Source: Dudresnaya verticillata
Lineage: Eukaryota
Assembly: GCA_977862235.1 (NCBI GenBank)
Contig: OZ374562.1
Location: 2,046,001-2,110,000 of the forward strand
Reading direction: 5' to 3'
Length of the DNA stretch: 64,000 bases
The stretch's first letter is position 1. Each line of letters starts with the position of its first letter. This document shows, in pieces, positions 1,985-64,000 of this stretch. The notes under the pieces are model-generated. The model did no database searches. It was not told the origin of the DNA and saw nothing but the letters and a program-made list of their open reading frames with translations. A program made the position numbers and the translations under genes.

Positions 1985-2843
1985 TGTGGTGCAAGGGGAG
2001 GGCTGCCCCTTTTTCGCTTTGAGCGTATTATATGCCAACGTCTACCGACGGCACTTCAACCGCCGTTGGCGCGCGAACACGTCATGGACGATTGGTCCCC
2101 AGGCATACGGCTGCCGTTACCCCGCGCGGCGCGCGCGCACTGTACGGGCAGATCCGGATGTATCATCCCGATCGACAAGGCGCAAGGCGCACGCCTGTAA
2201 GCTTGGCCCGGATCCGGATCAGATCCGGGTGGGGACATCGGGATCCGACATCGGAATCCACAGTGATGTAAGGAGCGCGCCCGTAATGGCCGCGCGCCAG
2301 CAATGATGGCGGGGATCTGGATCCGAATCCGGATCACCCGCACTTCTACACGCATGCGCCTGTAAGTCACCCATTACTCGCACGCACGCCTGTAAGCTAC
2401 TCCCGAGCTCCCGCGCACGCGGCTGCATGGCGACGACGACGTGTCAGACACTCGACGGCGCGACACGCGTCCTGAGTTCCCGCGCACCGCGCCCGCCGCC
2501 GTCGCCCACGTAGTAAATTAGGTAATCCGTCTGAGACGCTGAGTAAACCCCGGACAAGCCGGCCTTGGTACAGACTTCCCCATTCCGCACGCGCGTACCC
2601 TACCGCTGCCTACGGCCTAAGCGTCTACCTCCCGTGCTTCCACGTCCCTCACCGTCCTTGACGTGTTTCCTTTTTGTTCCCTTTTTCCTGCCTTTCCGCC
2701 TCAGGCGTCTACAGTCCGCCCAAGGCGTGTCCACTGCTCTACCACAAGCCGCCCAAAGCGAGGCTACTCACCGCCACGGGCGCAGCTACCCACCGAGTCC
2801 CGAACTGCTCGGCGGTGTTCCGTCTTCAGACGTTTGCACTACA
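1985..2843 (+). repeat. 5' LTR of element A
   Basis: TGTGGTGCAA...TTGCACTACA; about 24 substitutions plus one 7-bp indel versus 14512-15377 by manual count (about 97% identity). Confidence 0.97.
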
Positions 2844-2863: not shown

Positions 2864-2895
2864 TTGTGCTACGTTTCAACGAGTGACTCCGTCGT

Positions 2896-5554
2896 GTGAC
2901 GTCCGACTTTCCGTCTTCAGACATTCGTCGCCCATCGTCCACGACGTTCAAGCAACTCTACGACTGCATAATGGCCTCACGACCGCCGACGTCGCGAGGC
3001 CCAAGTTCAAGAAGACCGTCCTCGACGCCTGCGAGTGTCCCCGCGTCAGAACGGTCGCTACAGCGGATGACAACAAGATCAGGGCGCTTCGTTAGCCCAG
3101 ACATCGTGTCGGCGTTCCTGACGCCACCCCCGGACCACGGTCACGCTGGCTCCCACGTGTCGCTTAACGGAGGAGAGTTACCTCGCCCGCCGACGCGTAT
3201 TCCTGTTGCCATCCGCACGTCAGTCCCCGAGGGATCGGCCCTCCGCACCTACCACGCCTATGTCGACTCGGCTGATACAGTACAAGCCGAGCAACGGGGC
3301 GTCGTAGACGAAAGACAAGCCGAAATCATCGAGGAGCAACCGGAACTTCCGGACCAACCAACCATCCCCGTCAGTAACGATAAGGAGCACTCCGCGGAGC
3401 GCGACGTCGCTGACGACCCATTGACACCTGGGGCATGCTGCCCCACTCCCCACGGCAGCGCCGGTTGCTCACCGGCTAAGCCGAAGTCGACAAGCCAAAG
3501 GGATGCAGGAATGCCTAACCGGTCAACCCCCGAAAGCCATCCGCCCACGGCGTCACCCTCGGCCGTCCGCGTGAGTAACATAACGATACCACGCGAACGG
3601 ATCCGAGAGGGGTGCGTCTTAGAAGACGATGCTCTGCTCGCAAGGTTCGCTGGTTTGCTAGACGACAGTGTCGGAGGAATCGCAAGTCGTCTACAGACGT
3701 TGGAAGAGGATCGAGACGGCGCCCTACAAGGGCTTCGCTCCGATCTTGACCGTCTACTGACGAACCAAAACGCCCATAGCGAGGGTACCCAGCCACCGCC
3801 GGCAGTAACGGTCCATTCACACTCTGAGCTTAGCTCACGCGAACGCTTTCAGCGACTGGCGACTCGCTTAGAGCGTCTCGAAACCGCCAAGTGGCGCAAC
3901 TGTCCACCGTCGGGTGACGAGAGTTCGTGCGAAGACCGTCACAGACGCAAGGATCGGAAGAGAAGCCGCCGCCAGCTGCGTCATAGACGGAAGAAGAACC
4001 GTCATCGACGTGGGGATTCATCCTCGTCCTCTTCGGACTCAGTAAGTGACGGAGAGTCATCCGACTCTTCGTCTGAAGACGACGACTTCGCTGTCGGAAG
4101 TGCTGCAAGACCTCGCGGAAAGCGGTTCAAAGGATCGAAGGAGCTACGCCCCTTCAACCCCCTCTTCGACCAGCTATTATCGTATAGGACTTATCTTCTC
4201 CAGGACATAGGGCAGAAACGCTCAGGGCGCGACACGGGTAAGGTCAAGGACAATATTAAGCGTCTGGAGCTGACCTCGAAGGACGCCGCCTTCAACGGCA
4301 GCGACCCCGTCATGGTCCTGGAGTTCCTAACGCGTTTCGCGGATGAAGCCGATACGCTGGAGATGAGCGAAGCCCAAGCGTTTGTAGCGCTACCCTACTT
4401 CTTGCGAGGTACGGCAGCCACGCAGTTCCGCTCCGTCAAGTCGACGACTTCGCACCATCGCGGCGGGATGTCCTCGTATCCGGAGGCGGTACAGTACCTC
4501 CTCCGTACGTATGTTACGCCAGCGGCGATCAGGGACAATGTCCTCGCCCTACGGTCGACCGTCCAGAAGCAAAGCGAGGACGAGATGACTTATGGGATGC
4601 AACTATCCAGTGCTTGTATCCGTTGCGGTAACGTATATCCCGATTGGGAAAAGATGACGCTGTAAATCGACGGGTTAGACACGTCGATAAGGTCTCTGGT
4701 CGCTCGCTTCCGAGAAGAAACGCCAAGGGCGGAATTATCATTCGAGCGGCTGGTTCACTTCGCGCAGGACGAGGGAGACGCCAACCGCGCTGGACGAGGG
4801 AGACGCCAGCCGCGCACGACACGGCAGGGCCGGTTCCGCGTCAGCATGACGTGACCTACTGACACCGGCTCAAGCCGTACGCACACCGCGACCCGCCATC
4901 GGCGATGCCCGAGGTGCACTACATCCACAGACGAGAGGCGCAAAGCCTGGAGCGCGCGCTATGATAGCGGAGTCCTCCGTCGAGTTACGAGACGTTAGCC
5001 GCCCTGCCGATGACATGTAAACACACGCCGATGGCGATCTCTACCTGGCAGACGAGCAAGCGTCGGTGCCAACTTCGGCTCTACCGACGGACAGCTACGT
5101 CGATGACGAAGAAACAAGGGACATGGACCTCGCTCTCGCCTTTGGGCGCTCGGTCGTACCCGCGCCACGCGTTCCATACTCCGAGTATGCCCCACACGTT
5201 CACCGGGCAAGACCCGGATGGCAGGATAGAGGTCCGCCCCGTCAAGACGCGCGTCGGCAGCTGGTATGCCACCAATGCTACGCTCGCGGACACATCGCGC
5301 CGGACTGCTTCCTCCGCATGAGCGACTTCATGAAGGTTATTCCCAACTATGAAGGACTAACCGAAACCGAGAAGGCTGGTGTCCCCGCTGATGCGTATGT
5401 CCGTTGCAAGGAACGCGCGACTCGCGACGCTGCCCACCGTGCTGCACGGCCGCAATCGCCACGAGGCGGACCCATGCCGCACGCAGCAGAACGTCATCCG
5501 ACGATGATCAATCGCTATGTAGCGCCACAACCACCGCCGCCGGCGAAAAACTAA
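2896..5554 (+). pseudogene. gag: Gag of element A with CCHC zinc knuckle; stop at 4665 and frameshifts
   Basis: ORFs 2896-4665 and 5066-5554; CHQCYARGHIAPDC knuckle; short internal duplication near 4770-4815. Confidence 0.9.
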
Positions 5555-5698
5555 CTCGGGCACCGAATCCTGACACTGGGGTGTCGCACCATGAAGAGAG
5601 GCCTAGGCCTCGGGTGTTGACACGGAAAGAGCCCCGAAGTTAGTTTCTGATGACGCCAGTGGGCGGATAGAGTCGTCACAGACGTCATTAAAACGCCC

Positions 5699-8600
5699 AT
5701 GGCGAAGGTACCAGCCCCCCAGGCGCGGGGGCAGTTGTTCGTAATGGCCAAGAGGAACTATAAGGTGTACGCCGACTTGGGCGCAACCGTTAGTACCTTG
5801 GCACGTAAACTCACTGTCCTCGATACGGGGGCTGGTCTGAATTTCATTTGTATTGACGACATTCCGCTGGAAGCGCGATCAAGCATCGTGGCAACGAGTC
5901 TCCCCGTCATAGCCGACGCCAACAATAAGGCGATCCAGACAAGAGGCACCGTCGACCTGGTCGTTCGTCTGGGACGGCGAGTCGTCAAGTTGGAACTGAT
6001 CGTTTGCGAGCGACTCGCTGCGCCGGTTATACTCGGCTGCGACTTTTGCGACTGCTTTGTCGAATCAATATATCCGCGAAGTCGCGAGGTCGAATTGGAC
6101 GACGGGACTCGTGTCCCTATAACGCGCCGCCCCCTGCGCCGACCCCCGTCGTATCCTCCGTTACCAACGGAACAGGAATACGGCAAGGCCGAAGGAAGGA
6201 CGTCGCCCAAGATACGAGTAACAGTGCGCGCGATCATCCCGCCTATAGCGCAGCAATGAGTATCGGTTACCACCAAGCGCGCCGGCGTCATCACAATTCA
6301 ACCGTTCGGAACGCTGTACGACAAACAAGGTCTATCCGTTACGAACGGGATTGCCCAAGTGGAGCCGCTAAAAGCACTTCGAATTTTGGTTGCCAACTTC
6401 TCTTCCCGACCGCAGGCGCTGGCCAAAGGCCAAGTCGTCGCGACGGCGTTACCATATCCGACAGCAGTGTTCCCCAGTCACGTAAGTCTAGCCGATGTTT
6501 TGGGCCTCACAGAGGAACAGGCCGAGGAGGAGAGGGCAAACCAAGACTTCCGTTTTCAAACGAACGATAATACTACGGCACAGCTGAATACTTTCACGAA
6601 GTCAATCGAGGCAATCACTGCAAAGCCTCCGTCAGTAGACGATTTGGACCTGGGACATTTCCCCGCCGAGCATCAAGGCCATCTTAAGGAGATGTTACGC
6701 AAGTATTCGTCTATGTGGGACGGTTCGTTTGGAGAAATCTCAACGACGGAGCACTACATCGACTTGCTTCCCAGCTCTAGGCCGATATCGTCCCCGCCTT
6801 ACCGAGCGGGGCCGAAGGAAAGACAACTCGCTCAATCGGAAGTGGACCGCATGCTGCGTCAAGGGGTTATCGAACCCGCACAATCGCCGTGGGCCTCACC
6901 AGCGGTTTTCGTCCCCAAGAAGGATGGGACCCTCCGCTTTTGCGTAGACTACATCCATTTAAACGCAGTAACCGTACGGGATACGTACCCTCTGCCCCGT
7001 ATCGACTAATGCATTGACAGTCTAGGGGAAACAAACGTCTTCACCACCCTAGACGGTAACAGTGGGTACTGGCAGGTGCCGATCAATCCGCGAGATCGCG
7101 ATAAGACCGCGTTCACGTGCCACGCCGGACTGCTCCGCTATAAACGTATGCCTTTCGGTCTCACGAACGCACTCGCTACGTTTCAACGAACGCTGGAAAT
7201 ACTGCTCGCGGGTTAAAAGTGGCGTTCGTGCCTCGTCTACCTCGACGACGTAATAATCTTCTCCAGCTACATCGACAGTCACTTCCGTCATGTTGACGAG
7301 ATCCTTTTGACACTGCACCCCGCCGGGGTGACCCTGAAGTTGACTAAGTGTGACTTCCTCACCCCGACCGTCAACTACTTGGGTCACGTCATACATCCAG
7401 GACGGTTAGAAGTTGACCGAACTTTCACTGCTGCGCTATGCGAAGCCAAGCATCCAAGGGATCAGAAGTGGCTACGGAGCTTCCTCGGTCTTTGTAACCT
7501 CTACAGACGGTTCGTCTCGCGATACGCGCATGTCCCCGCCCCCCTCAATACGTTGCTGAGGAAGGAACAGGAATTTCTGTTACAACCATTCGATGAGACA
7601 CAAGCCAAAGCGTTCAGTACGCTCGCCGAGGCCGTGACTCACCCGCCTATACTGGCGCTACCACAGCAGGGTCTCCCCTATTCCGTCGATTGTGACGCAA
7701 GCGAGTATCAGGTTGGCTGCGCTCTCTTTCAAACGCAGCCCGACGGAGAGCGTAAACCATTCGGCTTCTGGTCTCGCTCGCTCACCGCTCCAGAACGTAA
7801 CTATTCGGTCTCCGAAAAGGAGTGCCTCGCAGTAGTATGGTCCATCATGACGTTGCGACCTTACCTCGAGATGGAGTCATTCACAGTCCATACGGACCAT
7901 TCGTCACTGAGGTGGCTGATGGAAATCAGCGACCCCTCTTGACGGTTAATGCGGTGGCGTCTTCGCCTTTCTGAGTTCGACTTCGTCGTGAAATACAAAA
8001 AGGGGTACCTTAATACTCAGGCAGATGCCCTTTCGTGTCTACAGACGGCGGGGGAAACCGTCGAACCCATTGACGATGATGTACCATGCTACCACGGAAG
8101 CTACGTCGAAGACGGCCATCAAACGTCACAAGACGATATGTCAGAGGCCGAAGGCGAGGTTGACTTCTCCGAACGAGAGTTCGAGGCGTTTGACCAAGTG
8201 TTGATCAAAAACACGCCACCGGCGGATGAGGTAATCCTTCGTCAAGTGACGCATGAGGCGTTGGTACACGCACAAGGCAATGACCAATACTGTAACGAAA
8301 TCCGGAAGCATCTGGGCGACGGAGTCATCTTACCGTTCGCAACGGATTAACAGGGCCTGTTGGTCCGAACAGTAGAAGCCCGCTCGCAAGTAGTCGTACC
8401 CTCCGCGTTACGTGCTCGCTTACTCCACCTCCGGCACCACGCCAAGTTGGTAGGGCACCCAGGGGGGCGTAAGTTGTATCAGACGCTTCGACGCGAATAT
8501 TATTGGCCATCCATGCCAGTTGACTGCTACGCGACCGTCCGCAACTGCGTAACCTGCGCTAAGAATCGCATATTGTTGCGAAAGAACACCAAGGAATTGA

Positions 8601-10225
8601 AGTTATTCCCGGCAACCGAGCCTCTCGAGTTCTTATCGATCGACATTCTGGGCGAACGCATAAGAACGAAGCGAAGCGAGGAAACAAATTCCTACTCGTC
8701 ATTGTGGACCGCTTCTCGAAGCTGGTCCGGACGGTGCCATTACGTAGTATGACGGCATTGGAAATCGCTAAGGCGTTTGTACGACACTGGGTCTTCGAGT
8801 ACGGCCCCCAAGAAACTGTTGTCCGACGACGGACCACAGTTAGTGGCTAAGTTGTTCCAGGATATCTGCCGTCTTTTGGGAGTGGAGAATCTCTTCACCA
8901 CGACGTACCATCCGCAATGCAATGGCCAGATAGAACGATCCAATCGAACTATCCTGGCCTCGCTGCGTCACTACGTTGCGGATCATCCGAGATATTGGGA
9001 CCTGTTCCCAGATGCCTTGACGTTCGCATACAACACGCAGTTGCATTCATCTACGCATCCCGCTCCGTTTGAATTGGTGCTGTCTAAGCCACCACGGCCA
9101 TTTTCGCTTGAAGCGGAACCGTCGCTTGAAAGCGTACCCACCGCGGGGCAATACTATACCAAGTGGCGAACCTGGCTGGCCGCAGTGATGGGAACCGCTA
9201 AAGCGTCGTTAGAGAAAACTCAAGCACGTTACAAACGGAACTTCGATACCCGATTAAGGAAATCGAAAGAAGCCATCGCCGTAGGCGACTTCGTATTCGT
9301 ACGCAAGGAATACTTCGCCCGAGGCGGGGGCACTGATTGCGCAGAACGCAAGCATAAGTTGGCGCCAGTGGCGGACGGACCATATCGGGTCGCGCACGTT
9401 GATAACGAGACAGTAACCGTCGATAAGGGACGTGAAGAGCGGGAACGCTTGTCCCGAGACCGCGTGGTCTGGGCACCGACCCCACCGGGTCAGGTGGCCC
9501 CTCCAATCGTCGTGCCCCCCGGCCCACCCGCGACGCAGGACGCAGTCGCCCCCACGTCACAAGACGAAGGGACGACTACCCCCGACCCGCCACTAGCGAA
9601 CCCAGAGGGTGACGCAGAGACTTCGCATACTGCGGGAGATCCGCAGGAGCGCACAAAGGAAACGTCACGCAGTCGTGGGTTGGCAGAGCTTTCTCCCTTC
9701 GCAGCCGACCCTGACGACCGCGCTTCGCAATCCGTCTCCAACGACGACAGTACCCCAGGGGTTCGCACCCGTTTGGAACACGTCGCTACGACACCGCGTT
9801 AACCGTGCAAGCACGAAGCAAACGCTGCAAGCGATGACGTCGTCCCAAGATGCAGCACACCAGTCACCTTTGAAAGAGCATCCAAGGCCCAAGGCCAACG
9901 CCCTCGGCGATCACCCCGTCGAGTCCGCTTCGCCAAACCGGTACAGCTGCCCATCACGCAACGGGACGAACCGCCAAAGGCGCTGGCGGGGCCCACGCCC
10001 CAGCCGATCGCTGCGAGCGGGAAGGAATACGTTATTGAACGCATCAAGTCGCAAACGAACGCGGATGATGATGAGATCCTCTACCGCGTCAAGCGGAATG
10101 GATACCCCGCTTCAGCGAACACCTGGGAGCCAGTCTCCAGTTTGCCGCGATCACACGTCGTGCGGTACCACGGTCGGAAGCACACGCGCCTGCCGCCCAA
10201 CATTGACGACGCTCAACGCGGGTAA
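5699..10225 (+). pseudogene. pol: Pol of element A (protease, RT, RNase H, integrase, chromodomain); multiple stops
   Basis: LDTGA protease; [16 protein letters not shown] near 7238; DCDAS...RNYSVSEKEC; HHCC and DDE integrase; chromodomain EYVIERI...YRVK...NTWEP at about 10026-10190. Confidence 0.95.
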
Positions 10226-11695
10226 ACTAACCGGAGAAACAACGCTCAAAGCGAACGCGATGACGATCGAAACTGCACGAGCGCACAACGGTCGCCAAAG
10301 GCGTGGAACCCCCATCTAACGTATGTGGACGCGGGCACACCGCTGTGGCGACATACCGGCACACACGTCACAGACGGGGAGGGACGCAAATACTTGGGTC
10401 ACAGACGGCCATCCCAACGGCCCTCATACAGAGCTCCCGGAGGTGACGATGGCTGACAGTGGATCCAGATCCCTAGTAGAGATACACGACCCACCAATCC
10501 AGCGGCACGACGAAGACCAGCATTGGAAATTTTAATGGACAAACACAGGGGAGGCGGACTACCCGACAATCCATCTCTACGCCAAACGCGATAGGCCAAG
10601 TGGCAACACGGGCACTACGAGCGCGCACGACGGCAGACGCACTTCGAACCGCGCAAGGACCGTCCCCGAGGCTGACGCCGGCTCGCGCACCACGTCCAAG
10701 TCGCTGCAGCCTTCCATTACCCAGGCAGCAAACGCCTCGGCCACGCACGAACACACGCACAACGTCCCCAACATACCTCGCGCAGGAGGGGCACGCCGCC
10801 GAACCCGCCGCGAAAGGGGTAGTGAGGCGTCGAGGACGCGATTATCACGGTTCCGTGCACGACGCACAACCAAATCGCTAACCAAATTGCCCAATGGCTC
10901 CGCCGCTGAGAATGGCCGCCACGGTCGCGCGACGACCATTCCCCACCCTCGGAGGAGAACGTCAGAGACGAGGAACAAGGCAACTCGCCCACCAGTAGCT
11001 ACCGTACCGACCACACGTAGACCTCCGTCAACGACGATGCGCACAACTACCCTAAGCTACAGCGCACCAAGCGAGAAAAGATTACAACCTACTCCGCATG
11101 CAAATGGCCCACGCTCATGCGCAAGCCGCGGTCCGAACTCGAAAACATCCAAAAACGCTTTGAGCGAGTCCCCCATGACGATTATGTCGAGCGTGGCAGG
11201 ATGGAATGCAACGCAAGGAAACGCTTTGCTAAGCGAAATAACTAAGAGGCTCGGCCCCGACAACGTCAACAATAGTTGTCGCCAACGAAACACAGCTCCG
11301 AAAACAACGCCCAAGTAACCTTTCTAGACGATTAACACAATAACATCGCCACGATGAGACAAGAAGTAGGTGAACGCTCGCCGAAGTGACACCATTTCTC
11401 ACTATACGTGCAGCATGAGTTCGCTAACACGCCCGCAAGACGCGGTGGCAATACACTACAACACGACGGCTGCAACACGAAGGTTGCAGCGAGAAGAAAC
11501 CAAACTACGTTACCAACGATAAAATCTATTCGGGCTAAGCAACGGGAAAGCCCCGCGCCCAAGCTACAAGCCACGGCGGCTAAACGCCGCAAAACATTCA
11601 ACAAATTCGTCAACGACGTACGATGCCCTACCTTCCGACTCCGCAAAGGAGCCGACAAGGTACCACAACACGCACCCCCGCGACGGCCTTTTGTG

Positions 11696-14228
11696 CTAAA
11701 CGACGCTAACTACGTCACGTCGCAGACGGTTTTGCTGAGCCCTCCGCACCATCGCCCTCGCCGGAGTCCCTTCATAGAGGTCATATTTCGTCACCGACGG
11801 CACACCCACAGCAGAAACAGGGACGGACCGCAAAGGCACCGCCACCACCACTACTGAAGGAGTAATACGCGCCGCTGACGAAGAGTTCGACTCACCACCC
11901 GCCTTAGGCGGCGAAGCCTCTTTGGCTTTGCCAACCACCGATGGCGTCGAACCAAGTCGGTCATTCGCCCCCGGCGCTGCCACGATAACATCCGCCTTCA
12001 GCGTAGTTGTAGGGACTGTCCCCTTGGACGACGAAGCAACCACAACCGCCTTTGGCGTAGAGTCTAACTCATCACTCGCCTTCAGCGTCGCAACAGAACC
12101 AACCGCCTTCGGCGCAACTGTCGCAACCGTGTTAACTGACGTAGACCCCTCAACGGCCTTTGGCGTCATTGGTTCTATATCCGTCATCGACGCAGGAGCC
12201 ACTGGACCCTCCTCAACCGTCGAAGACGTTGTAGCGACATTTGCTTCGCTCGCCGCTGGCAGTACAGTAGCAATTACGTCTTCGGAGGCTGAACCAGTCG
12301 CCTTAGGCGATGACGACTTTTCGTCTGCACCGTCTTTCGACGCAGAACCTACACCAACCATCGGTACCGGCACCGACGCACCTTGGGGTCGCGACGCAGC
12401 CGCCAGAGACTGGCCCACCCATTCGGTGGGTGAGCCGCTCAAACAGCTAGCAGCGACTCCAGCAGCCCGCAATAACGCGAGCACGGTGCGGTGCTGTTCC
12501 TCGGTCCAGAACGGCATTGAGGGCGCATTCACTGATCCGTCTACGACGATTGATACTCCGCCTTGAGGCGTTACGGTCGTCGGAGCCGACTCGCTTTTGG
12601 CGTCGCCATAACGGCATCGCCAACCTCATCAGCGACGGGAGCCGCAAGGTCCAAGGGTGCAACAGCTGGCAAGCCACCCGGCATCCCAACACCACCGTCA
12701 GACCCTTCGGGCAAACCTGATGGTGGGGCCACAGCCTCGGCAGATGACTCAACCGCCATAGGCGTAACAACAGCCGTCCCAGACGGGTTCCCCGGTTCGC
12801 CATCGGCGTTAAAAGCACCCTCCTCTGCCATCAAGGCACTCAAGTGCGGAGGAAAGTCACCGACGAAGTCGCACCTCTTACGCAAACCACGCGGGTGATT
12901 ACCCGGTGAGCGGTCCGTTTTGAGATGACGCTCCGCAACGTTCTTCGTCGTACGACGCTTAGTCCATGGATTATAATGGATCCAATCGCCACAGGCGCAG
13001 TGAGTACGACTCATCGCGAATCGCGGGCGGTTCACCTTACGGCGGTTGTTCCCTAACGGCACCATCGCTGGGTCGTTCCAATTGACTTCATCCGCTACTG
13101 AGCGCAAATCCCAGAACTCCTGGCTGTTCCTCGACTCGCCAAGTATCTGGGATAGGTCAAGGCCACCAAGAGACACGACTACGCGAGGTGGCAGATAATA
13201 CATGCGAAAGGTGTCATACACCTCCCACATCCATGCGTACGCTACGTTTGCCACCCATTCGGTGTAGAACATCACCCACCGTTTGGCGTACGGGTCCGTC
13301 AGTAACTCCGACCCGAGATACGTGAGACACGGAGGGAGCTCGGCAGCGAAACCTTCGCAAATTTCGAACTCTCGCCACACTGGCGGCACCTTCACGAAGC
13401 AATGAGGCAACTTGCTGCGTTCGATATGATCGACCTGCATATCCTGGTAGGCCACAAAGACGCCCTTTCGGTGACGCGTTTCACACTCCCAACGTATGCA
13501 CCGTTCCCAAAAGAACGTACCCGTTCGGTGTTGGTAACGGAAATCCGCTTTCAAGCGCACTCCCAAGAGGTACGCCTCCTGTATGATACGCGGCTCTGCC
13601 GAGACGCTCAGATGTTTGAGCGATAACGTCCCTAGACGATTCCCATATTCGATCTCGCCATTGGTTCGGTATTGCCAAGCGTCAAACTCAAAGATGGCTG
13701 ACGTTAACGTCGAGCACGGATAACGCGTGGAGCGACGATAGACGTCTGCGACGAACTTGGCGTGAACGCCCCCACGCGATTGCCCTGCGCAAACCCACAG
13801 CCACTCGGGCGGCACTGCGCAGCGCAACTTCCAATCCATCGTCCAGAAGACGGCAAGGGGGAGTCCCCCTGGGAAAAATCCGCTGGTAGCGTAATGAGCA
13901 ATGAGCTCCTCATTGCGCAAGGCCTCCTGGTCAAACCAGGGGGCCTGCGCGAAGATGTCCCCGTGATCCTGCGAGTTCTTCCCGACAAAGTCGTGCGGCG
14001 ACAAGTATACCGGCGCGGCCGAGGGCGCCGCGACCTGAACACCATTGAACATCGGCATATCGTCAGCGACGCAATTTCGTTCACGCCACTGGCGCTTAAG
14101 GTCAAACAAACGTCAACGACGACTCTTGCCCAACGCCACAGGCGGTTATACTTTTTGATTACGTTAAGGACGCCTTTTGTTCCGCGCCACAGGCGACTAC
14201 GATGAGCTGCGTCACAGACGGGAAACAC
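11696..14228 (-). pseudogene. Antisense accessory ORF of element A (unknown protein, roughly 800 aa if frameshifts are repaired)
   Basis: 512-aa ORF 12571-14109 with globular, Trp/Tyr-rich composition; apparent frameshifts near 14107 and 12595 join it to the 14228 frame and to ORF 11696-12532. Confidence 0.8.
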
Positions 14229-14511: not shown

Positions 14512-15377
14512 TGTGGTGCAACGGGAGGGCTGCCCCTTTTTCGCTTTGAGCGTATTATATGCCAACGTCTACCGACGGCACTTCAACCGCCGTTGGCGCG
14601 CGAACACGTCATGGACGATTGGCTCACGGGCATACGGCCGCCGATACCCCGCGCGGCGCGGTGCGCGCGCGCACTGTACGGGCAGATCCGGATGTATCAT
14701 CCCGATCGACAAGGCGCAAGGCGCACGCCTGTAAGCGTGGCCCGGATCTGGATCGGATCCGGATGGGGACATCGGGATGCGACATCGGGATCCACAGTGA
14801 TGTAAGGAGCGCGCCCGTAATGGCCGCGCGCCAGCAATGCTGGCGGGGATCTGGATCCGAATCCGGATCGCCCGCACTTCTACACGCATGCGCCTGTAAG
14901 TCACCCATTACTCGCACGCACGCCTGTAAGCTACTCCCGAGCTCCCGCGCACGCGGCTGCATGGCGACGACGACGTGTCAGACACTCGACGGCGCGACAC
15001 GCGTCCTGAGTTCCCGCGCACCGCGCCCGCCGCCGTCGCCCACGTAGTATATGAGGTAATCCGTCTGAGACGCTGAGTAAACCCCGGACAAGCCGGCCTT
15101 GGTACAGACTTCCCCATTCCGCACGCGCGTACCCTGCCGCTGCCTACGGCCTAAGCGTCTACCTCCCGTGCTTCCACGTCCCTCACCGTCCTTGACGTGT
15201 TTCCTTTTTGTTCCCTTTTTCCTTCCTTTCCGCCTCGGGCGTCTACAGTCCGCCCAAGGCGTGTCCACTGCTCTACCACAAGCCGCCCAAGGCGAGGCTA
15301 CTCACCGCCACGGGCGTAGCTACCCACCGAGCCCCGAACTGCTCGGCGGTGTTCCGTCTTCAGACGTTTGCACCACA
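14512..15377 (+). repeat. 3' LTR of element A
   Basis: TGTGGTGCAA...TTGCACCACA followed by TSD ACCAA. Confidence 0.97.
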
Positions 15378-15452: not shown

Positions 15453-15470
15453 TTTTAGGTCGGGAGACCA
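15453..15470 (-). promoter_or_regulatory. PBS of element B, tRNA-Tyr-like
   Basis: Minus strand reads TGGTCTCCCGACCTAAAA, near-identical to the PBS of A and C. Confidence 0.8.
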
Positions 15471-16034
15471 AAAAGATGTGGTGTAGTGAAAGGCACACCT
15501 GTAAGGAGAGCTGATCAGGCAATCTCAATACGGAGTGATCTCACACGGCACCGGGGTGGTAGAGCTTAGTTCGTAGACCGAAGGGAGTACCTCGAGCGGC
15601 AACACCTGTAAGGAGTAAAGGGACGCAACAGACAAGGGGGACGGTACAGTGCCAGGGCAGCTACACCGGGACGGAGGGAAGAGGAATCCGTGCACGGGGC
15701 TGGCGAGGGGAAACTGTGAAGGAGTATGAGGGTAAGGCTTAGGGCAAGTCACTTTGCCCAGGGTTGCGTACAGTCAAAGCCCTCTAGGAGGAACCACTCC
15801 GTGGAATGGGGTAAGTTCCACTTATCGAGAGGTTTCAGTTGGAGGGAGGCATACAGTACACGTGTCTCACATTTATTTGAAGAATTGATCAACGCGGGTT
15901 TGTCGCATGCGCAGTCCTTTCTCGACACGTAGCTCGCCCTGTAGATTCCTCAGACTTCTGAACAACTTGTTATCTTCCCGTTGACGAGCACCGACAATGT
16001 ACTTCACACGAGCGATGGCAGCCAATTGCTCCTG

Positions 16035-18096
16035 TCATGAACCAAGACGGGTAGGCTCGGTTGGTTCCTCAACGCTGATCTCATCGGTAGCACGTCCCTC
16101 CCGAACCCCTGCATTGACCACTGCGTCCACCATGCCCGTCTCCGTTGTAATCTGTGTGACCTCCATCTCGTCTTCCCAGCACAAATTGTGGTGCAGATCC
16201 ACTGCTGAAAACAACAACAGAGGACACACCTCGGGCGTTCGGGACCCGCGGGTAGCGGTAGTAGGGGGTGGTTTGGTAGAGCGTGGGGAGTAGCCCCGTA
16301 GCGCGACTGTAAAACGCCACGAGACGAAAGAAAAAGGGAGGAACCCTAAAATAGCGGAAAAGCAAAGGGAAAAGGGAAAGGGTTCTGTATGATGAAGAAG
16401 GGGTACGCACGCACTGGAGTCCCTCCTGACGACGAAGGTGTCGGTCAAGGGTAGGGAGGTGTGTTTCGTAGAGCCCGAGCTTGGCTTGTTTACTGAATGA
16501 GGGCGCGCCGCTAGCTCTAATATACTATGTACACGCGGGTGCGCCGCAAATGAAGTGAGGAAGGGAGCGTGCCATTTGGTGATTCGTGACACGCGGAAAG
16601 GGATTAACTAAAATTAACTAAAATTAAGGGTGGCTGACAGTGCATACAGAAGCGAAGATCCGCCACCATAATCCGCCACCCGTTGCCGCCGGCGAGCAGG
16701 ACTTACAGGCCGGGCGCCTTACAGGGGCAGTCCCCAAGTGCATTGCTGGCGGGGAGTCCGCTATTTAAGGCAAATGAGCACCGGTGAATTGCACCACACA
16801 ACTTTTCCGATATAGGAATGCGCCTGTGCTCGGGCACTACGGAAGAAATTAAAGAATTAACATCCTCCGCCTCGAAGTTCGGCTCTTCTGTGCACTGTAC
16901 AGTTCCCTCCATTGTGCTAGTTACATTCGATCCCATCAAACCAGTTGTACGCCAACAATTCGAAATTGTTCGGCCGTGATTTCCTTCCATACATCCGTAA
17001 GCCACCTCATTGCAGAAAGTATGCCCACTTTGTAATTTTCCCCAGCCCCGATGTCTGCTAAATCTACGGCGTATTCCATTTGACGCCGTCTATAGCGGAG
17101 TTTCATTGCCGCAATAATTCCGGCGTCGAGAGGCTGCAGTCGACTTGTTGTGTTGGGAGGAAGGAATTGCACAGAAACGTTCTGTAGTGGCGGCAGAGAA
17201 TCAATGGAACCATGAGCAGAGCAATTGTCCATCAAGAGCAGGACGTGTCTACTCGGAGTTTTTCGAACGAAGGCGTCAAATGCGAACAACCGATCAGTAA
17301 AAAGCAGAGATGTCATCCATGCCTTCTTGTTGCTCTTGTAGCTCAGGCCCAACTCTTCTCGTTTCTTCTTTTTGAAACATCTCGGTGACGTTGCAGTACC
17401 AATGAAAAACAATGGCACCTTTTCTGAGCCATCTGCGTTACAGCAGCACATAAACGTGAACCTAGACTTTTGCTTCTTGCAGCCAGAGAAAGAGCAGTTG
17501 GCTATGGTTCTGTCTGGTGCAATTTTCCAAAACAATCCCGACTCATCGCAGTTGAATACATATTTTGGACTGTATTGTCTGACTTTGTCCTGCAGTGATC
17601 GGAGGTCTCTCGATACCGTGTCCTCGGGTACGTCACCACTTTCGCCATGCAGACGAAAAGAACGTAGCTTCCAACGTTGTTTAAAGCGTGCTATCCATCC
17701 ATCAGAGAACGTCAGCTTTATCTTCTGGCCTTCTGTGAGTTGTTCATTTGCCAAAGAAGCTAAACGCCGCGCTTTCTCCTGAATCATCACACCCGAAATG
17801 CAGCGCCTTTTGTGACTCATGTGACAAATCCAGGCATAGATGGAGTTGTCAAGCTCTGTATGTCGTGGGCGAGAGCAACGGAACATATTTTCTGAAGTCG
17901 ATTCGGTGTCTTGCGGGGCAGAGGCGTTGATAATCCGTGACATAATGGGTTTCCCCGGCAATTTCCGCAGCCCGTACTGGACTTGCGCCCACTCCGCCAG
18001 GGCCGCATGTGTTGCTTTGCGGCCATCACTCAGGCGAGCGTTACGTTCCTTCACAATGCCGCGCTTTTGCGCTAGGGACAGACTTTGAAGTGGCAT
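16035..18096 (-). pseudogene. pogo-like transposase (CENP-B-type HTH plus DDE_1); frameshift near 16980 and a solo-LTR insertion in the C-terminus
   Basis: ORF 16936-18096 has FSDGWIARFKQR, FNCDESGLFW, MDNCSAH, LQPLDAGII; continues TISNCWRTTGL...ISEKL|CWEDEMEV across the insertion. Confidence 0.92.
16187..16798 (-). repeat. Solo LTR inside the pogo-like transposase
   Basis: TGTGGTGCA...TTGCACCACA; TSD CAAAT/CAACT (1 mismatch); removal rejoins the transposase tail. Confidence 0.85.
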
Positions 18097-20865: not shown

Positions 20866-21470
20866 TGTGGTATAGATGTAAGACCAGCTGTGCCACGCCC
20901 GCGCAGCTGCAAGACCAGCTGCGCCACGGGTGCACCGCTGTGCGCACGCTGTCAGCCGGTGGCGCCGAAGCCCCGCTGAAATGTAAGGAATTGCGCTGTG
21001 GCGTCCCGCGTGCGCGTGTACGCATGTGACACTGACACTCCCGTGTACCTTGTACTTTTATTTTTGCGTGTAATGTGTAGTCTAAATTAAGCGGCGGTCG
21101 AACGCCTTGCTGTCCTACGCGCCGTCCCGCACACGGCGCACGGAGCACGCGCACTCCGGTATCGAGCTGTTGGGTGCGCGGCGGACCGTTACGTCCGCGC
21201 GTGCCCCCGGGTAACCGTTACCCGTACGTGTGGACACGTGTCGGTGCACGCCGGTGCACCTCCTGTGTGTAGTGCCGCCGCGTACTGTAGCTAGTCTATT
21301 TAATGTAAGTCGACAGGCATGGCTAAGTAAACACAACAAGCAACCAGCCTGCGCTGGTGATGGCCCCTTGTTCTTTGGGTTTCTATCCCATTCTTTCTCC
21401 CTACGGCGTTTCCCTTTCCCTTAGCCGTTTAGGCGCCCCCTTTCCTTTCCGACCGTTTGCTTTGCTTCCC
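20866..21470 (+). repeat. Family-X LTR, 3' truncated or diverged
   Basis: TGTGGTATAG start; clear similarity to 23817-24633 and 40802-41636; preceded by CCTCT. Confidence 0.85.
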
Positions 21471-23780: not shown

Positions 23781-23816
23781 GCAACTGAATCAAACAACAT
23801 TGAAAGCTCGGATTAT

Positions 23817-49653: not shown

Positions 49654-49741
49654 TACGATTGGTAAATTGTTTCGCTGACTCCTACAGTTGACGAGTTAAG
49701 TTATCGACAAGGCGCTTCACAACGTCCGCGAATGCAGCCCT

Positions 49742-54866: not shown

Positions 54867-56908
54867 ATGAGTCCGCTGGCCGCTCCTGCCAATCTTCGGC
54901 TGCCTCCGGTCGATGATGATTCCCAGCCAGAACATGATGTCTGGTTGGGCCGGCAAGAGTTCTACCAGTATAAGCGACGTACGGCCGATTGGCAACAAAA
55001 GGTGAAGAACCAGTTTGGCGAGATGCAAGTCAAGATGTCCACCACGGCTCTGATTAGGGACCAACAGCTTCGCCAAGAGATACACTCCGTCATTCTCGAC
55101 GGTGCACTTACGGCCATAGCCGAACTTTATGATGAGCGTCTGGAAAAGGTTGAGTCGGCCGTTTTCTCTTCCGACGGGAAGGTAAAACTGGCTGTTCCTC
55201 CTGTCCAGACAAGGTCCGAGTCCGCTCGGATGACACCGGCCAATCAACCAGTCTTGGCACCACAGGTTGGTGAACCGGTAGCAGCAGTGCAGAAGCAACT
55301 GGACAAGTTGCAAGATGAGATTACAGCCTTTTCGCATCCTGATAAGGCTCGGCCGAATATTCCAGTGGAAGGGGTACCACCGCAAAAGGGCAACACTCAG
55401 AACAGTGGTGCGCCCCACGACCTGCGTTAGTTGGACCTTCTGGCCCGGCTGAGGTAGGAGAATCTTTCACGGGATATGCCGGCCATTTGGATGAAACAGG
55501 TCTTCCAGTCGCAGCAATGGGGCCGATAGAACAGGGTCTAGAGCCTCTCAAGACCCTCCAGGAGACCTTCCGGCGGGTGGTGGATTACCGGACCCACCGT
55601 CTTCTGGATACTCGGCCGACGATGACTATGGAGGATGCGCGGCGCTTGTCCCGGATGACTCGCCAAATCCGGAACTTGTTCCCGCAGATGAACCCATTTG
55701 ACGGCCGACGCTCGATAGAACTTCTTTCTTTCCTCAAGGAGTTCAAGGATGCCTGTGATGGGACAAACGTTCATGAAGGGGCCGCTTTGCGTCTTCTGGC
55801 CTTCTTTACGGCCGGTGATGCGAAGAGGTTCTATTATGGCCGGATGTCCCGTGGTATACGGTCAGGACACTCCATCTTCCCGATGAGTGGATTTTCACAA
55901 TTCAGCTGGCCACACTTAGTCCATGCTTTCATCAAGCGCTACTGCACCGAAGATGTTCTGGCCGCCGCGTTTGACAAAGTGGCCAGAAGCAAACAGAAAG
56001 ATACCGAGACAGAAGCGGAATTCGCCGACCGGATAGGAGACGCGGCGCTGTCGTGCGCCGATGTCTTCTCGGAGAACACCCTGATCAACCATTATGTGAG
56101 GGGTCTAACTTCGACCACTCGTTCGGCCGTAGCTGAGAAGCTTATGCAGATGCGGCCGGAGGAGAAGGACTTCTCGACGGTGCGCCGTATAGCCATCGCC
56201 GAGGGGGAGACACACAGAGCCTACTTGGCTTCTGCACGTCCCAAAACAAGGTCGGCCAGTTCCCGAAGTGCGTTGGTCATCCCTACCCTTGCGGCCGAAC
56301 CTGCTTGGCAGGCGGAGCCCGAGAATATAGCGGCCAACTATGATGATCCGTTTGACACTATACCGGTTATGGCCATTACTCCTGGCCAGAATGGTGCTCA
56401 GCAAACACCGACAATGACGCCGACCACGCCGTCACCGGCTGGGTCGGTGTCCGGGGGTAATACCCCGGACCCACTCCGGAAGCCGCCAACGTTGACGGCC
56501 GATGAGCTGACCAAAGTCGCTATTATGCTACGCAGTGACAAGACAAGCGCCCGTTGTTGGGGTTGTCGCGAATGGGGCCATGATTTGTACACTTGTGTGT
56601 ACTTACCAAAGGCCATCAGGAACTTGTTTGCCATACGGAACTTCCACTTCCGAGATGAGTACTCTAGATGGCACCCTGAACAGTTTGCCGGCCGAGGTGG
56701 TCGAGGTTACCGCCCCGACCAAAGGAATGTCTCCTTTGGGGATGGAAGGGGACGCCCTCCCCCTCAGGGAATACTCCGACGGCCGCAGCAATCATCTTCG
56801 AACCGTGGGAATCGGCAGGATAAGTTAGTCACTACGCAAGAACATCCAATGGATGAGGTGGTGGCCTACGTCGAGTCCGATAATTCTTCGTTAGCATCGG
56901 GAACCTAG
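54867..56908 (+). pseudogene. gag: Gag of element C; one frameshift near 55430
   Basis: ORFs 54867-55430 and 55487-56908; CWGCREWGHDLYTC knuckle; similar to A and B gag. Confidence 0.9.
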
Positions 56909-56928
56909 CCGGGCCGAGATCTTGGGTC

Positions 56929-59900
56929 GTGATCCCGTTGCCCGTACACGTCCCAAAACCGGTTAGTCTCGTTTCCGTTAAGTTGTTTCCTTTTAGTAAC
57001 CTCCGTTTTTCTTCCTTGCTAGCCATTGCATGGCGTTTGGAAACGCCAATCCAGGTTTGGTCAACCCATGATTTGACCTACCACTGCCTATTTTCATCTA
57101 ACGGTCTGGTGTGGTCACCGCCTTGGCGGTTCGGCCACACTACATCATCATCATCCACCCCCATACCAAAAGATGGGGGTTCCTTGCCAAAGAGTGGCCG
57201 CAAACCATTGAACGAAGAAAAGAAAGACGTCTACCAGTCGGCCGATGTTTCATCACAAGGTATGGTTTGCATCCTGGGTGGGGCCAACTATACCCTCTCG
57301 GGTTCTTTTGGTCTCACCATCTCTGCCTTGATACCCGGACCCGTAGTCTTAGACACTTGCTCCGGGTGGAACATCATCCGATTGGATGTGTTGCCTCCCA
57401 ATTGGAAGGACAACGCACTTGTGTTGACATCCATACCTCTCCTAGGGGACGCCAACCAACGGCCGATTCACTTTCGAGGGGCCGTTTCCTTGGTCGTGCG
57501 CTTAGTCCGTCTTTCATATAGAGTGCCGTTCCTGATCTCCGACCTTCGATTTGCTGTACCCATCTTACTGGGTACAGCCTTTTTGAACACGCACGTGGAT
57601 AGCATCCAGTGTCGTGGTCAAACCGTGCGCTTAGTGCGCGGAGATGTCCTTCCGCTGCTCCCTGACAGCACTTCGATGGCTCTGGGGGCAGAGCCAACCG
57701 CTGCGAAGGGGGCCCCGCCTCCGGGTAATTCCAATTCGGCCAATATGGAACGCAAGCCTCCACGACACTACGCGGCCACTGTACGCTTGACAAAAGGTCT
57801 GACCATACGGGCAGGTCAACAGGCTAACGTGTCTGTTCGCAGTGCCGGCCGGGGTTTATGCGTGTTGGAGCCCAAACATTCTTTGAGCTTCCGGCACCAT
57901 ACGCGAATGGCCAATGGAGTTGCAGAAGTTCGGCCGCAGAAGCCATTCCAGGTAATGCTGGCCAACTGGGGATGAAAGGATGTCTTATTACCGAAGGGTA
58001 CGGTAGTCGGCTACGCCGTCCGTCACCCTATGGCAATCCTGACGCCACACCGACGGAGCGTGGAAAATATGGCCAATGTACTTGGACTCACCCCTCTGGT
58101 GGAGCAGGACATTAGTGAAGTAGAAGTAGAAGAGGTCGGCCAAGAAAAGGACAAGTCTTCGGAACCAGAGACACCCAGAAATGACGCAGAAGAATGGCGG
58201 GACAAGATCAAGCTTGATCACATCCCGGACAAGAAGCAACGTAAGAAGATAATGGCCATTCTGGAGAAACAAAGTGCGATGTGGGACGGTTCCTTGGGAC
58301 AGATCATGGCCACCGAACACCGAATAGACTTGGAGGATGGGACACGGCCAATAAGAGCCATGCCGTACCGACAGGGACCAGCGTTACGTGCAATCTCTGA
58401 CGCCGACATTAAGAAGCAGTTGGAGGCTGGAGTGATAGAGCCATCGTATGGAGAATGGGCCTCGCCAATTGTCATGGTGCCCAAAAAGGATGGCACTCTC
58501 CGCTTTTGTGTCGACTACCGCCGACTCAATGCGAAGAAAGTTGGCGACGCATACCCGCTCCCGCTCATGGACGATTGTATAGATTCCCTTGGGGATGCGG
58601 CCGTGTTTTCTACCTTGGACTGTAACTCAGGTTATTGGCAGATACCAGTGGCCGAAGAAGACAAGGATAAGACGGCCTTCAATTCCCACTTGGGGATATT
58701 CCGGTATAATCGAATGCCGTTTGGATTGAAGAACGCACCGGCCACATTCCAGCGCGCGCTTGATATAGTTTTGTCCGGCGTCCGTTGGCAAATATGTCTC
58801 ATCTACTTGGACGGCGTCATCGTGTTTTCTAAGAATGTGGAGGACCACCTGGGCCATCTGGACGAGGTGCTTACCTTGTTGAAGGCGGCCGGTATTACAT
58901 TGAAGCTGAAGAAGTGTTCGTTCTTCCAGACCAAAGTAGATTACCTAGGTCACGTGGTGACCCCCGGGAAGCTGAGTATGGCAATGCAAGGAACCAAGGC
59001 AATTCAAGAGGCCGAGTTTCCAGGTACCCTTACGGAACTCAGGTCCTTCTTGGGGAGCTTGCAATGTCTATCGAAGGTTTGTGGCCAAATACTCTACGAT
59101 CGCACGGCCACTCACGCGTATGCTATGCAAGGATGCAGAGCCAAACTTTGAGCAGCCGACAGAGGAACAGAGTCGTAGTTTCGAGAAACTGAAGGCAGCC
59201 CTAATCTCACCGCCGATCCTAGCCCTGCCTCGACATGGACGGCCTTATGTCATTGAAACAGGTACCAGCGCTTATCAAATTGGGTGTTTCTTACTCCAAG
59301 AGCAAGCGGACGAGACGTATCACCCAGTGGGATACTGGTCCCGCTCCCTGACTTCGGCCGAGAAGAACTATTCGGCCACGGAGTGCGAGTGTTTGTCTGT
59401 GGTGTGGGCCATTACATCGTTACGGCCATACGTTGAAGGGACGAAGTTCACGGTCCGCACGGACTATGACGCCCTTCGTTGGTTGATGTCGCTCACAGAT
59501 TAGTCAGGCCGCCTCACGAGATGGAGATTACGCCTAGCCGAGTTTGACTTTGTAATTGAATATAAGCTGGGATGCAAGAATCAGGTGCCCGATGCCTTGT
59601 CCCGATTTGTGGCCCCGCTAGAAAACGGAGACATACGGCCAATAGATGATACTGTACCTGCATTGGATGGTACCCCCTCTGTTCTCACGACCACACGGGC
59701 CAGGATAAATCGAGAAGTAGCCCACGTGGCCGATAGGAGGGAACGAAAAAACGAAGACGATGTTGATGCATGGGAAGAAGAGCATTTGATGGCCGATAAT
59801 ACTGACTACGGCCGGGCAGAAGCCTTCAGTCGCGCACAAGCAGAATGGAGGGCATCGGAGACACTCCCCGCACCATTGACACACGCCGAAATTATAGAAG

Positions 59901-61366
59901 GGCAGAAAAGCGATGACTTCTGCCAGACCATTATAGCTACACGTGCCGGTTTAGGGAAGTCCAAGAAACCCCTTTTCTTCGAGAGTATCCAGGGTGTCCT
60001 CTCCAGGAGGTGTCCTACGGATGGCCGACATCAAATAGTGCTACCCGCTTCGTTACACGGCCGTATCCTTCGGCTGTGTCATCATGCAGTTCTTGCAGGT
60101 CACCCTGGCCAGAACCGTATGTATCAGACACTCCGCCGGACGTATTATTGGCCACATATGGCCGCTGATTGCCTCGCCCCTATTCGGAACTGTGGCCAGT
60201 GCGCCAAGAATCGGATTCGCAGGCTACGCCATACGTCGAGGTTGAAGCTGTTTCCGGCCAATCAACCCTTGGAGAGCGTGGCCATGGATCTGCTTGGGCC
60301 GTTACCTCGGACGAAGAAAGGCCATGAGCATATATTAGTCATCACATGCTGTTTCTCTAAACTGACACAGGTGGTACCATTGGCCAAAATCACTGCGTAC
60401 AATGTGGCCATAGCCTTTTGCACTCACTGGTTTTTCAAATATGGAGCGCCGAAAACGGTACTAACCGATAATGGGGGGCAGTTCGCGGCCAAATTCTTTC
60501 AAGCGGTTTGTCCTCAGTTGCAAGTGGCCAATATATTCACGACGACATACCATCCACAGACCAATGGTCAAGTGGAGAGGTGTAATCGGACGCTGTCGGC
60601 CATGCCGCGAAGTTATGTGCATGAACACCAAACCGATTGGGACCAATATGCGGCCGCACTGATGTACGCGTACAACTATCATGTACATCGTTCTACGGGA
60701 ACTACACCGTTTGACTTGGTGCTGAGTCGGCCACCAGGACCGTTTTCGTTAGAAGCCACGCTAAATCGGCCAAAACCAACGGGAGCAGTCAAGGAAGCTT
60801 TCCTCCGAAGGTTGTCAGAGGCTGTGGATAAGGCATCGGCCAGTCTAACTCGCACGCAGACACGCTACAAGAAGGACTTTGACCGTTCAGTGCGAACGGG
60901 GAATAAGTCACTGGCCGCAGGAGAGTTCGTCTACTTGGATAACCCGGAAATACAGCCGAAGAAACTGGAGCACCACGCACAAGGGCCGTATAAGATTATA
61001 AGTAACGATGGCCGAACCTTCATGATAGACCGGGGTGGCCAGTTGGAACGCGTGAGCTCTAGCCGAGTTGTCGCGGCGCCAAGGCCACAAGGGCAACCAC
61101 TGGCTCCGGAAACTATGACTAGTGCTGCCCTTGGCAACCTCCCAGAGGGCGTGGCAGCGACGGCCGAGGAGTATGTCATTGACAAACTCACGGACATGCG
61201 CCAATATTCTACCGGCCGACGTTGGTTCCAGGTCAAGTGGTATGGTTATCACGGCCGAACGTGGGAGCCAGAAACTCTCTTGCCGGCCACATTGGTCTCC
61301 CGTTTCTTCGCGCGCATGGCGCGTCGAGCCACACCAACCCAAAGCAGTAGCGGTGGGCAGGTGTGA
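56929..61366 (+). pseudogene. pol: Pol of element C (PR, RT, RH, IN, chromodomain); a few stops and frameshifts
   Basis: [25 protein letters not shown] (decayed YLDD); KNYSATEC; MDLLG/TDNG/NGQVER; EEYVIDKL...FQVKWYGY..RTWEP. Confidence 0.95.
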
Positions 61367-62162: not shown

Positions 62163-64000
62163 TTAACGCCGGAAGTAGAGGTCAGCGTACTCGCCTGGCC
62201 GAGAAGAGTAGGGCATCGGAGACCTTGATCCCGCTGCCCCACCAGCATCCGACGAAGGGTCGGCCGTGCGTGGTAAGAATGGGCTGGCCGCGGGAAGAGA
62301 CATGGAAGGCGTGCCAGCCATACTAGAACGCGGAGCCGCCACCGGGGTGCCAGGGACCGAGGGCCCCGCACGAGCGGGCTCAGGTTGATAATCGGACGGC
62401 CGAGGCGCAACGCGACTTTGGCCGTAAGGGACATCAAAGACTTGAGCCGGAGTTGTAGGAGCCTGGGTCGGTGTAGCAGCTCCCGGCGTCCCAGCAAAGT
62501 TGGGCATCATGGGAACATTGGCCGACAGTTGCTGATTGGGATGATAGTGAGACGGAAATTGGCCAAACGATGGAGCGGCCAGTGCCCTCATGGAAGCCAG
62601 CTGGTGGAAGCTGCGGTTGCGCTCCAAGTCCAGTAGCGTCTGCTGCTGATGGGCCGAGTCGCACCAACGGTCGCGCTGGCGCCTCCACTCCTCGCCCTGC
62701 TCCTTCTGCATGGCCAACTTATCCTGGGCATCCCGGTTAACACCGTTGAGTCGGTTCAGTTCTCGTTTCAAGTCGGCCAACTCTTCTTCGAGCTTATCAC
62801 TAACGGCCTTATCCGCATCTAGATAACGTCGATAGCGTGCAATATCGGCCAAGTCCTTCTCCCGCATCTCCCCGAATCGGCGGATGCATTGGTCCAGTTG
62901 GCGTAAGATAGTCACCAACGGGGCTTGGTTCAAATGGCCCCTGACACTAAGCTCGGCCACAAGTCGAGGATGCGGCTGGAGAGTTTGCGGCCGAATGATG
63001 GAAGCTTCGTTGGCCACTTCCACGCCGAAGCTGCTACCGTGGCGGAAGGTAATCTGCTTACCCCAATCGAAACCACAGTACGGCGCGTCTTGCGACCCAC
63101 GGCGAGAAAACAAGTGGAGACGGTGACGGACAGCATCGGCCAACTTGTCGTAGAGGTCCACCACGTCCGGCCAATACACATCGTTGTACAAGTGCTGGTG
63201 TGCGGGGTTCACCGGAAGCGAAGGGAGATCCTTAATGGCCGAAACTCTCTTCTCAATACTCTGAAGGGGCATCCACAACATCCGCTTGGAAGCTTGTGCT
63301 TCGTATCGGAAAAACATAGCGGCCATAACATGAATCTCCCTAGTCTTGATCTGCCGCAAGTAACCGCACCAATCCACTTCAGTCGGCCGTGTGTTGTACT
63401 GATGAACGAAGTAATAGGCCGTGGGACTCAACAAAGGACACTCGCCAGCAGTCGGCCATTCAGACCAAAGGAAGGCCGGAATTGATGGGAAGGTAGTCAC
63501 AGGCGGCCAGAAACACTGTTGCCCACGACCACCGGCCAAGTAGATGTAGCAACCGGTCGTCTGATGAGCAACCCAGTCGGCCGGCGCAATCACGCGACGT
63601 AAGTCCGTGCTGGCCCACTTCGCACTACGCACCACGGCCTGATCTGCACGGTCCAACATCCAAGACTGCGGGAAGGAATGCCACCAAGTCAACATATATT
63701 ACATCACGGAACTTCGGCCGGTAAGCGTAAGCCAAGCTTGATGGACCAGCAAGACGTCGCCCATGTTGAGTAGGAAGGCGCGGTCGCATCCAATCTCCCA
63801 TGGCACCCAATATAAGTGGCCGCCAGCGCGCGAAGAACGGAACTGGCGCCAATTGTCGGCCAGGTTGTCGGGACTCTCACGAAGACGAACCATATCCAGT
63901 TTCGGCGAAGTAGCCACCAGCTCCGTGTAGTTGATGTAAACTCTCGGAAACTTCGGCCATATGGACATGTCGGGCAAACTCGCGTCCAGTCGCAACTCTG
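62163..64000 (-). pseudogene. Antisense accessory ORF of element C (more than 600 aa, one in-frame stop at 63699-63701; start at or beyond the window edge)
   Basis: ORFs 63699-63995 and 62163-63695 share a frame; aromatic-rich domain, coiled-coil-like segment, P/Q/S-rich tail. Confidence 0.82.

Follow-up and report, generated by a model that had tools for sequence, protein, structure and literature searches.

Chromodomain Gypsy retrotransposons, probably red-algal, carry a long antisense gene under purifying selection

Element A and its antisense ORF

The window, by which we mean the whole stretch of 64,000 nucleotides analysed, is transposon-rich eukaryotic DNA. It contains a Ty3/Gypsy LTR retrotransposon, element A, recognised by LTRs with TG...CA ends, a target duplication and a primer-binding site. 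The 5′ LTR (1985..2843, +) is preceded by the target duplication ACCAA and followed by the primer-binding site, which starts with TGG at 2846; the 3′ LTR (14512..15377, +) is again followed by ACCAA. The two LTRs are identical at 835 of 866 columns. The gag gene (2887..5554, +) is interrupted by stops and was matched by tblastn to the gag of a related metagenomic locus, L003, with 42% identity. The pol gene (5654..10225, +) encodes a protease-like region and then, in this order, reverse transcriptase (RT), RNase H, integrase, a long linker and a C-terminal chromodomain (about 10020-10150, +). It has 6 stops in 1124 codons (6107-9478). The Chromo match of element A (E 0.00036) is short of the Pfam curated cut-off, which is exceeded in two of its relatives (L001 and L006). 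Element A is thus complete (LTRs, gag, RT, RNase H, integrase and chromodomain) but decayed.

Several further observations concern this element. It is nested in a minus-strand Gypsy element (1-1947, -, and about 15460-15480), with the insertion point between the primer-binding site and the gag of that host element. The start of the primer-binding site, TGGTCTCC, is common to element A (2846), to a second Gypsy element of the window that we call element C (about 54096), to the host element of A (about 15460-15470, -) and to L003 (about 2900), so that the same tRNA is likely used. The pol linker before the chromodomain is long and disordered in the group of A. An RRVxF-like word is found there in element A (9806-10225, +) and in four of four A-type loci (L001, L002, L003 and L006), and is absent from the integrase linker of element C. 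We take this word to resemble the PP1-docking RVxF motif; if it is one, the integrase could recruit a host phosphatase.

The window holds other repeats as well. A DDE_Tnp_4 transposase gene (48374-49633, +) is convergent with a 495-codon ORF without a Pfam match (49742-51229, -), and we take the layout of this gene pair (48374-51229) to be that of a PIF/Harbinger element. A nearly whole pogo/Tc5-type transposase (DDE_1 and HTH_Tnp_Tc5) lies at 16936-18111 (-). Another repeat, of up to about 830 bp, is scattered over five places (20865-21460, 23816-24633, 25319-26083, 33568-34403 and 40803-41636); its copies are 68-83% alike and likely solo LTRs. Decayed relatives of the LTR of element A occur at 46522-47077 and 52187-52436.

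Behind the integrase-chromodomain region, element A carries the long minus-strand ORF that a sequence-only reading of this DNA had pointed out. From stop to stop, ORF A spans 513 codons (12571..14112, -); its first ATG is at 14058 and 495 codons are stop-free. Within it lies a conserved globular core of 360 aa (12868..13959, -), as seen from the family profile and an AlphaFold2 model. The gene of A likely extends past the coordinates noted earlier. The minus-strand frame at 11696..12625 encodes a small helical module that is also present in homolog tails, and then an Ala/Ser/Thr/Pro-rich tail with the word LRSVP, and this frame was matched by the whole-protein family profile with an E of 0.0006 (3 frames searched). 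The occurrence of these homolog tail features in the next frame suggests that the gene copy of A is frameshifted near 12600 (12570-12625) and that 11696..12625 is its likely continuation. The stretch at 10226-11695, about 1.5 kb from the end of pol to the end of the antisense gene, compares with 150-225 bp in four relatives of A; its plus strand is A-rich and encodes no recognisable protein.

We rejected the idea that ORF A is the shadow of a sense-strand gene. There is no long sense-strand ORF at the site, and the homologs, read in the antisense frame, change at third codon positions. In A, about 450 bp separate the first ATG from the motif at the LTR edge; in L001, L002 and L003 the distance is about 560, 730 and 140 bp, respectively. 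Distances of 140-730 bp are compatible with a promoter in the LTR, as the sequence-only reading had suggested, or with an internal promoter as in maize Grande. TATA-like words that we saw by eye close to the edge of the LTR were set aside.

Linkage to chromodomain Gypsy elements and purifying selection

A scan of metagenome contigs yielded six loci with a homolog of ORF A (L001-L006). The pol gene is present at four of them (L001, L002, L003 and L006, which all carry one accession prefix); the contigs of L004 and L005 are too short for pol. At all four loci with pol, the homolog is antisense and tail-to-tail with the integrase-chromodomain, and the two stop codons are about 150-225 bp apart. 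On the L003 contig all three genes (gag, pol and the antisense one) are present. The integrase tree is largely unresolved; a branch with a support of only 77/82 sets A and L001/L003/L006 apart.

The ratio dN/dS (Nei-Gojobori) was measured in homolog pairs; comparisons with A itself, which lacks a close copy, are saturated. The values are well below 1 (0.062-0.24). The pair L001-L004 gave 0.062 over 140 codons, with 5, 2 and 28 differences at the three codon positions, and 0.19 over its tail. The pair L001-L002 gave 0.136 over 380 codons, at a dS of 2.07 that is near saturation, and the pair L005-L006 gave 0.24.

In these respects element A agrees with the aORF-3R class of retrotransposon genes: a long ORF runs antisense to gag-pol in the interval from pol to the 3′ LTR, and purifying selection has maintained its homologs from copy to copy and from family to family. 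The sequence-only reading had proposed that the ORF is an old accessory gene under selection, and had recognised no family for it. For A this proposal is supported by evidence from outside the window (homolog loci, profile, dN/dS and Pfam). We put the probability that ORF A is an accessory gene under selection at about 0.95, and read it as the third, antisense gene of a chromodomain Gypsy group, likely red-algal.

A large protein family with an unmatched predicted fold

A word-based search with ORF A found two homologs, with 32-34% identity. A core profile made from three sequences matched 1,298 cluster representatives (50% identity) at E<=0.001; of these, 555 lay within 1e-10 and 128 within 1e-30. 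The best 150 of the 1,298 were retrieved. Twenty-two clusters were looked up. One of them is named and comprises four hypothetical proteins of the red alga Gracilariopsis chorda, the only named homologs among these clusters; the other 21 are ENA, Logan or JGI records. On the strength of these named homologs, a red alga is the likely host of element A. No cellular homolog of ORF A was seen among the named matches, and none of its homologs was found in the viral_contigs and genome_contigs collections.

The G. chorda proteins (BWQ96_10156, _00829, _09918 and _02238) are true homologs of A, with 32% identity over 80% of ORF A. They are annotated as hypothetical host proteins, unlike the element-borne gene of A. 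The four are near-identical, a pattern expected of element copies. It is likely that these supposed host genes are in fact carried by transposons, a point of relevance to gene counts in red algae. The gene models P0001 and P0003/P0004 differ by 29 aa directly before the core, possibly because an intron was predicted there or as an artefact of gene modelling.

Members of the family share an architecture in which a variable N-terminal stretch is followed by the core, about 360 aa long, and then by a disordered tail, with a length of 60-421 aa in 73 tails. Many homolog tails contain the small helical module, which by eye we take to resemble modules of the SAP/LEM/HeH type; whole-protein scans of homologs of the A family gave no Pfam match of that type. 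After removal of three near-copies, the word LRSV[PR], picked by eye, was present in 5 of 70 tails as compared to 0.05 in shuffles.

The AlphaFold2 model of the core is confident (pLDDT 94.7, pTM 0.93); a model made with three sequences had a pLDDT of 34 and was set aside. The core model had no fold match in the PDB, BFVD or a wide VIA-align search, which does not by itself prove a new fold. The predicted fold of the core is in this sense unmatched. Candidates from PDB sequence profiles were not significant (A-100, E 0.48; UHRF1, E 0.27; RanGAP1, E 1.1). Lipase-like leads for A in the ESM Atlas (0.82, low recognition) were rejected as no other search agrees with them, and the G. chorda core gave no usable match there. 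Among 54 homologs and ORF C, the antisense ORF of element C, Pfam returned six unrelated weak matches, all short of the curated cut-offs, and NCBIfam and PHROGs gave no significant match. TRP28 (PF04195) had no Pfam match in A or the 54 homologs, nor did the plant mobile domain (PF10536) at E<=0.2 in the 54 homologs. In the literature searched, PMC6431247 included, a red-algal antisense retrotransposon ORF is undescribed; Repbase, TE libraries, and the Chondrus and Gracilariopsis genome papers with their supplements lie outside that search and may describe one.

Element C and its antisense ORF

Element C is a decayed Gypsy relative of A, with an integrase core 46% identical to that of A. Its gag-pol (55346..61366, +) is broken, and a short linker precedes the chromodomain at its end. 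As the sequence-only reading had seen, a long minus-strand ORF lies behind the integrase-chromodomain here too, with 511 codons (62163-63698). The frame stays open past one in-frame stop (about 63700) up to the window edge, indicating that ORF C (62163..63998, -) is cut off and that the 3′ end of element C is outside the window. The encoded protein has a Trp-rich N-terminal part, a coiled-coil-like middle part with a weak SMC match (E 0.084) and a Pro-rich tail. Judged by base composition, an open frame of 511 codons is not expected by chance, and we regard ORF C as a real antisense gene at the same place as ORF A, whatever its ancestry.

That earlier reading had also claimed that ORFs A and C share a domain in spite of having no visible DNA similarity. 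The peptides it quoted for both are present at the places it gave, and a blastn search of the window against itself found no match between the two ORFs. The shared domain fared less clearly: the choice of segment was reproduced by the profile, and its significance is borderline. BLASTP aligned only the low-complexity tails (E 0.07). The same holds for Smith-Waterman alignment, with a score of 55 against 38.9 +/- 5.3 in shuffles, 26 of 2000 of which reach it. The best match of the family core profile (154 sequences) on C joins residues 69-147 of the 511-aa ORF (63258..63494, -) to profile positions 193-266, with -1.2 bits and an E of 0.085. This score was attained by 55 of 2000 shuffles, counting the 369 shuffles unlisted by hmmsearch as lower. 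The same segment was chosen by hhalign (probability 0.44%, E 0.14), and global hhalign found nothing. Of 300 shuffles, 7 attained the whole-profile overlap score of 32.0, as did 10 of 300 block shuffles; this score is above that of the reversed sequence and of 15 of 15 decoy stretches (maximum 18.0). The A-C match therefore lies beyond most shuffles (p about 0.02-0.03), below the usual cut-offs.

On balance, ORF C is probably an unrelated antisense gene gained independently, its likeness to A being a chance product of Trp/Pro-rich helical sequences. Every profile test between A and C stays below the usual cut-offs, and most of the family's invariant residues upstream of the matched segment lack a clear counterpart in C. 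ORF C also has the coiled-coil-like part, lacks the helical tail module and the LRSVP word, and belongs to an element whose short integrase linker lacks the RRVxF-like word of the A group. No homolog of ORF C was found at 281-895 aa or below 336 aa, a weak result since the same word-based searches found only two relatives of A. No C-like antisense ORF was found in L007, L009 or L010, and in the C-related elements L009 and L010 the 0.6-1.2 kb behind pol is free of long antisense ORFs. Against independent gain, two methods chose the same segment of C unprompted, three tests gave a shuffle p of 0.02-0.03, the overlap score exceeds all 15 decoys, and position and strand are identical in a related element. 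A remote membership of ORF C in the A family, as read from one C-side sequence at a p of about 0.02-0.03, is a possibility to which we give somewhat less than even odds. L009 and L010 are high-coverage contigs in a bacterial MAG (Algimonas) with intact-looking Gypsy elements, and are likely misbinned algal host DNA.

Proposed function of the antisense protein

The composition of the core provides some insight into what the protein might do. In 60 near-full cores, Arg makes up 10.6%, Trp 3.8% and Tyr 4.5% of residues, and the mean net charge is about +0.4. The best-conserved columns hold W, Y, R, E, D, P and G, and no Cys or His is conserved at 70%. We tentatively propose that the ORF A protein is a nucleic-acid-binding regulator that keeps its element expressed, most likely against silencing. 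The antisense gene would be driven by a promoter of its own within or beside the 3′ LTR, and a separate antisense transcript would allow the protein to be produced independently of the genomic RNA. The Arg/Trp/Tyr-rich core may bind the DNA or RNA of the element, and the disordered tail, with its small helical module and short motifs, may recruit host factors. The net effect would be an element activated or shielded from silencing, by analogy with VANC for VANDAL. A binding role is disfavoured by a core net charge near zero, unlike that of a strongly basic DNA binder, by the lack of any link to a nucleic-acid-binding domain in the fold and family searches, and by the basic word K[KR]x[KR] occurring in just 9 of 70 tails. 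A regulatory or anti-silencing role as such is likewise plausible at a little under even odds.

An Arg- and aromatic-rich core with a disordered tail suits RNA binding as well as DNA binding. The protein might therefore act after transcription, by binding genomic RNA, Gag or the integration complex, or by suppressing RNA silencing. Such a role would cover export, packaging and nuclear import, as in retroviral accessory proteins, and an analogy with Rev and Vpr has led to the same proposal for the antisense ORFs of plants (PMC7264820). We consider it somewhat unlikely, as a separate antisense transcription unit would uncouple the protein from the amounts of Gag and Pol, and BFVD holds no viral protein with a matching fold.

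The core is one globular unit of 360 aa with the nearly invariant residues D144, R149, E153, E209, R213, E250 and Y265 (numbered in the 513-aa ORF). These features would also fit an enzyme of new fold captured long ago, acting for instance on modified nucleic acid, and an m6A demethylase domain in orchid Gypsy elements is a precedent (PMC9289625). This is unlikely in our view: a metal-binding Cys/His set and a recognisable catalytic motif are absent, the conserved acidic and basic residues could form salt bridges within the structure, and the named matches include no cellular homolog.

Env-like genes occupy the same slot between pol and the 3′ LTR (PMC7264820), and an Env-like or cell-to-cell movement protein, in red algae possibly acting via pit connections, might be considered. 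Env-like genes have sense orientation and a membrane-spanning segment, and ORF A has neither. The best hydropathy window is 1.16 in A, and among 55 long homologs 3 have one of 1.8 or more; by its sequence, the protein appears soluble and without a conserved membrane segment. No viral fold match was found. We regard this explanation as highly improbable.

Going further, the chromodomain Gypsy elements of red algae might share one ancient anti-silencing gene of new fold across deep lineages, including that of C. This broad reading is quite unlikely; if true, it would be the first element-own anti-silencing system for LTR retrotransposons outside land plants.

Comparison with known systems

Among elements with antisense genes, Boty of Botrytis presumably bears a chromodomain. 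Known antisense ORFs in the interval from pol to the 3′ LTR include gene23 of maize Grande, those of rice RIRE2, the TRP28-bearing ORF4 of Silene Retand, the SMC-like ORF2 of bean PvRetro13, and brtn of the fungal Boty (PMC7264820). ORF A is alike in its antisense place between pol and the 3′ LTR, and the coiled-coil-like part of ORF C recalls PvRetro13 ORF2. The sequence-only reading had rightly named antisense ORFs in Tat/Retand elements; the listing of Boty shows that they are not confined there. These plant and fungal ORFs are kept across families and have been described with no assigned function; GENE23 of Grande is nuclear and has its own, internal promoter (PMC7264820). Retand is a non-chromovirus lineage, and 97% of its clusters encode TRP28, for which DNA binding is predicted (PMC11963269). 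ORF A, in contrast, lacks TRP28 or any other Pfam match at curated level, its host elements have an integrase chromodomain, and its hosts are likely red-algal, whereas those of Retand-type elements are flowering plants.

The plant mobile domain is similar in size to the core of ORF A. Like ORF A, it is a large domain forming an extra gene of Gypsy elements; its PMD-A clades are Gypsy-encoded and its host relatives MAIN/MAIL1 have silencing-related functions (PMC5418596). It differs in that a PF10536 match is absent from the homologs of A. The VANC proteins of Arabidopsis VANDAL elements (PMC5735166, PMC10398659) offer a functional analogy only, that of an extra element-encoded protein acting on its own family. 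VANDAL elements are DNA transposons and their anti-silencing activity has been shown, whereas ORF A belongs to an LTR retrotransposon, its anti-silencing role is proposed here and no sequence link to VANC was found.

How the antisense extra genes of LTR retrotransposons arose, and what they do, are questions on which the ORF A family bears. The family would show that such genes arose beyond flowering plants and fungi. Deeply diverged, with a confident model and an unmatched predicted fold, it is a ready target for structure and binding work. The arrangement as such is known, with an antisense gene placed after pol and before the 3′ LTR; here it is filled by a new, large and selected protein family.
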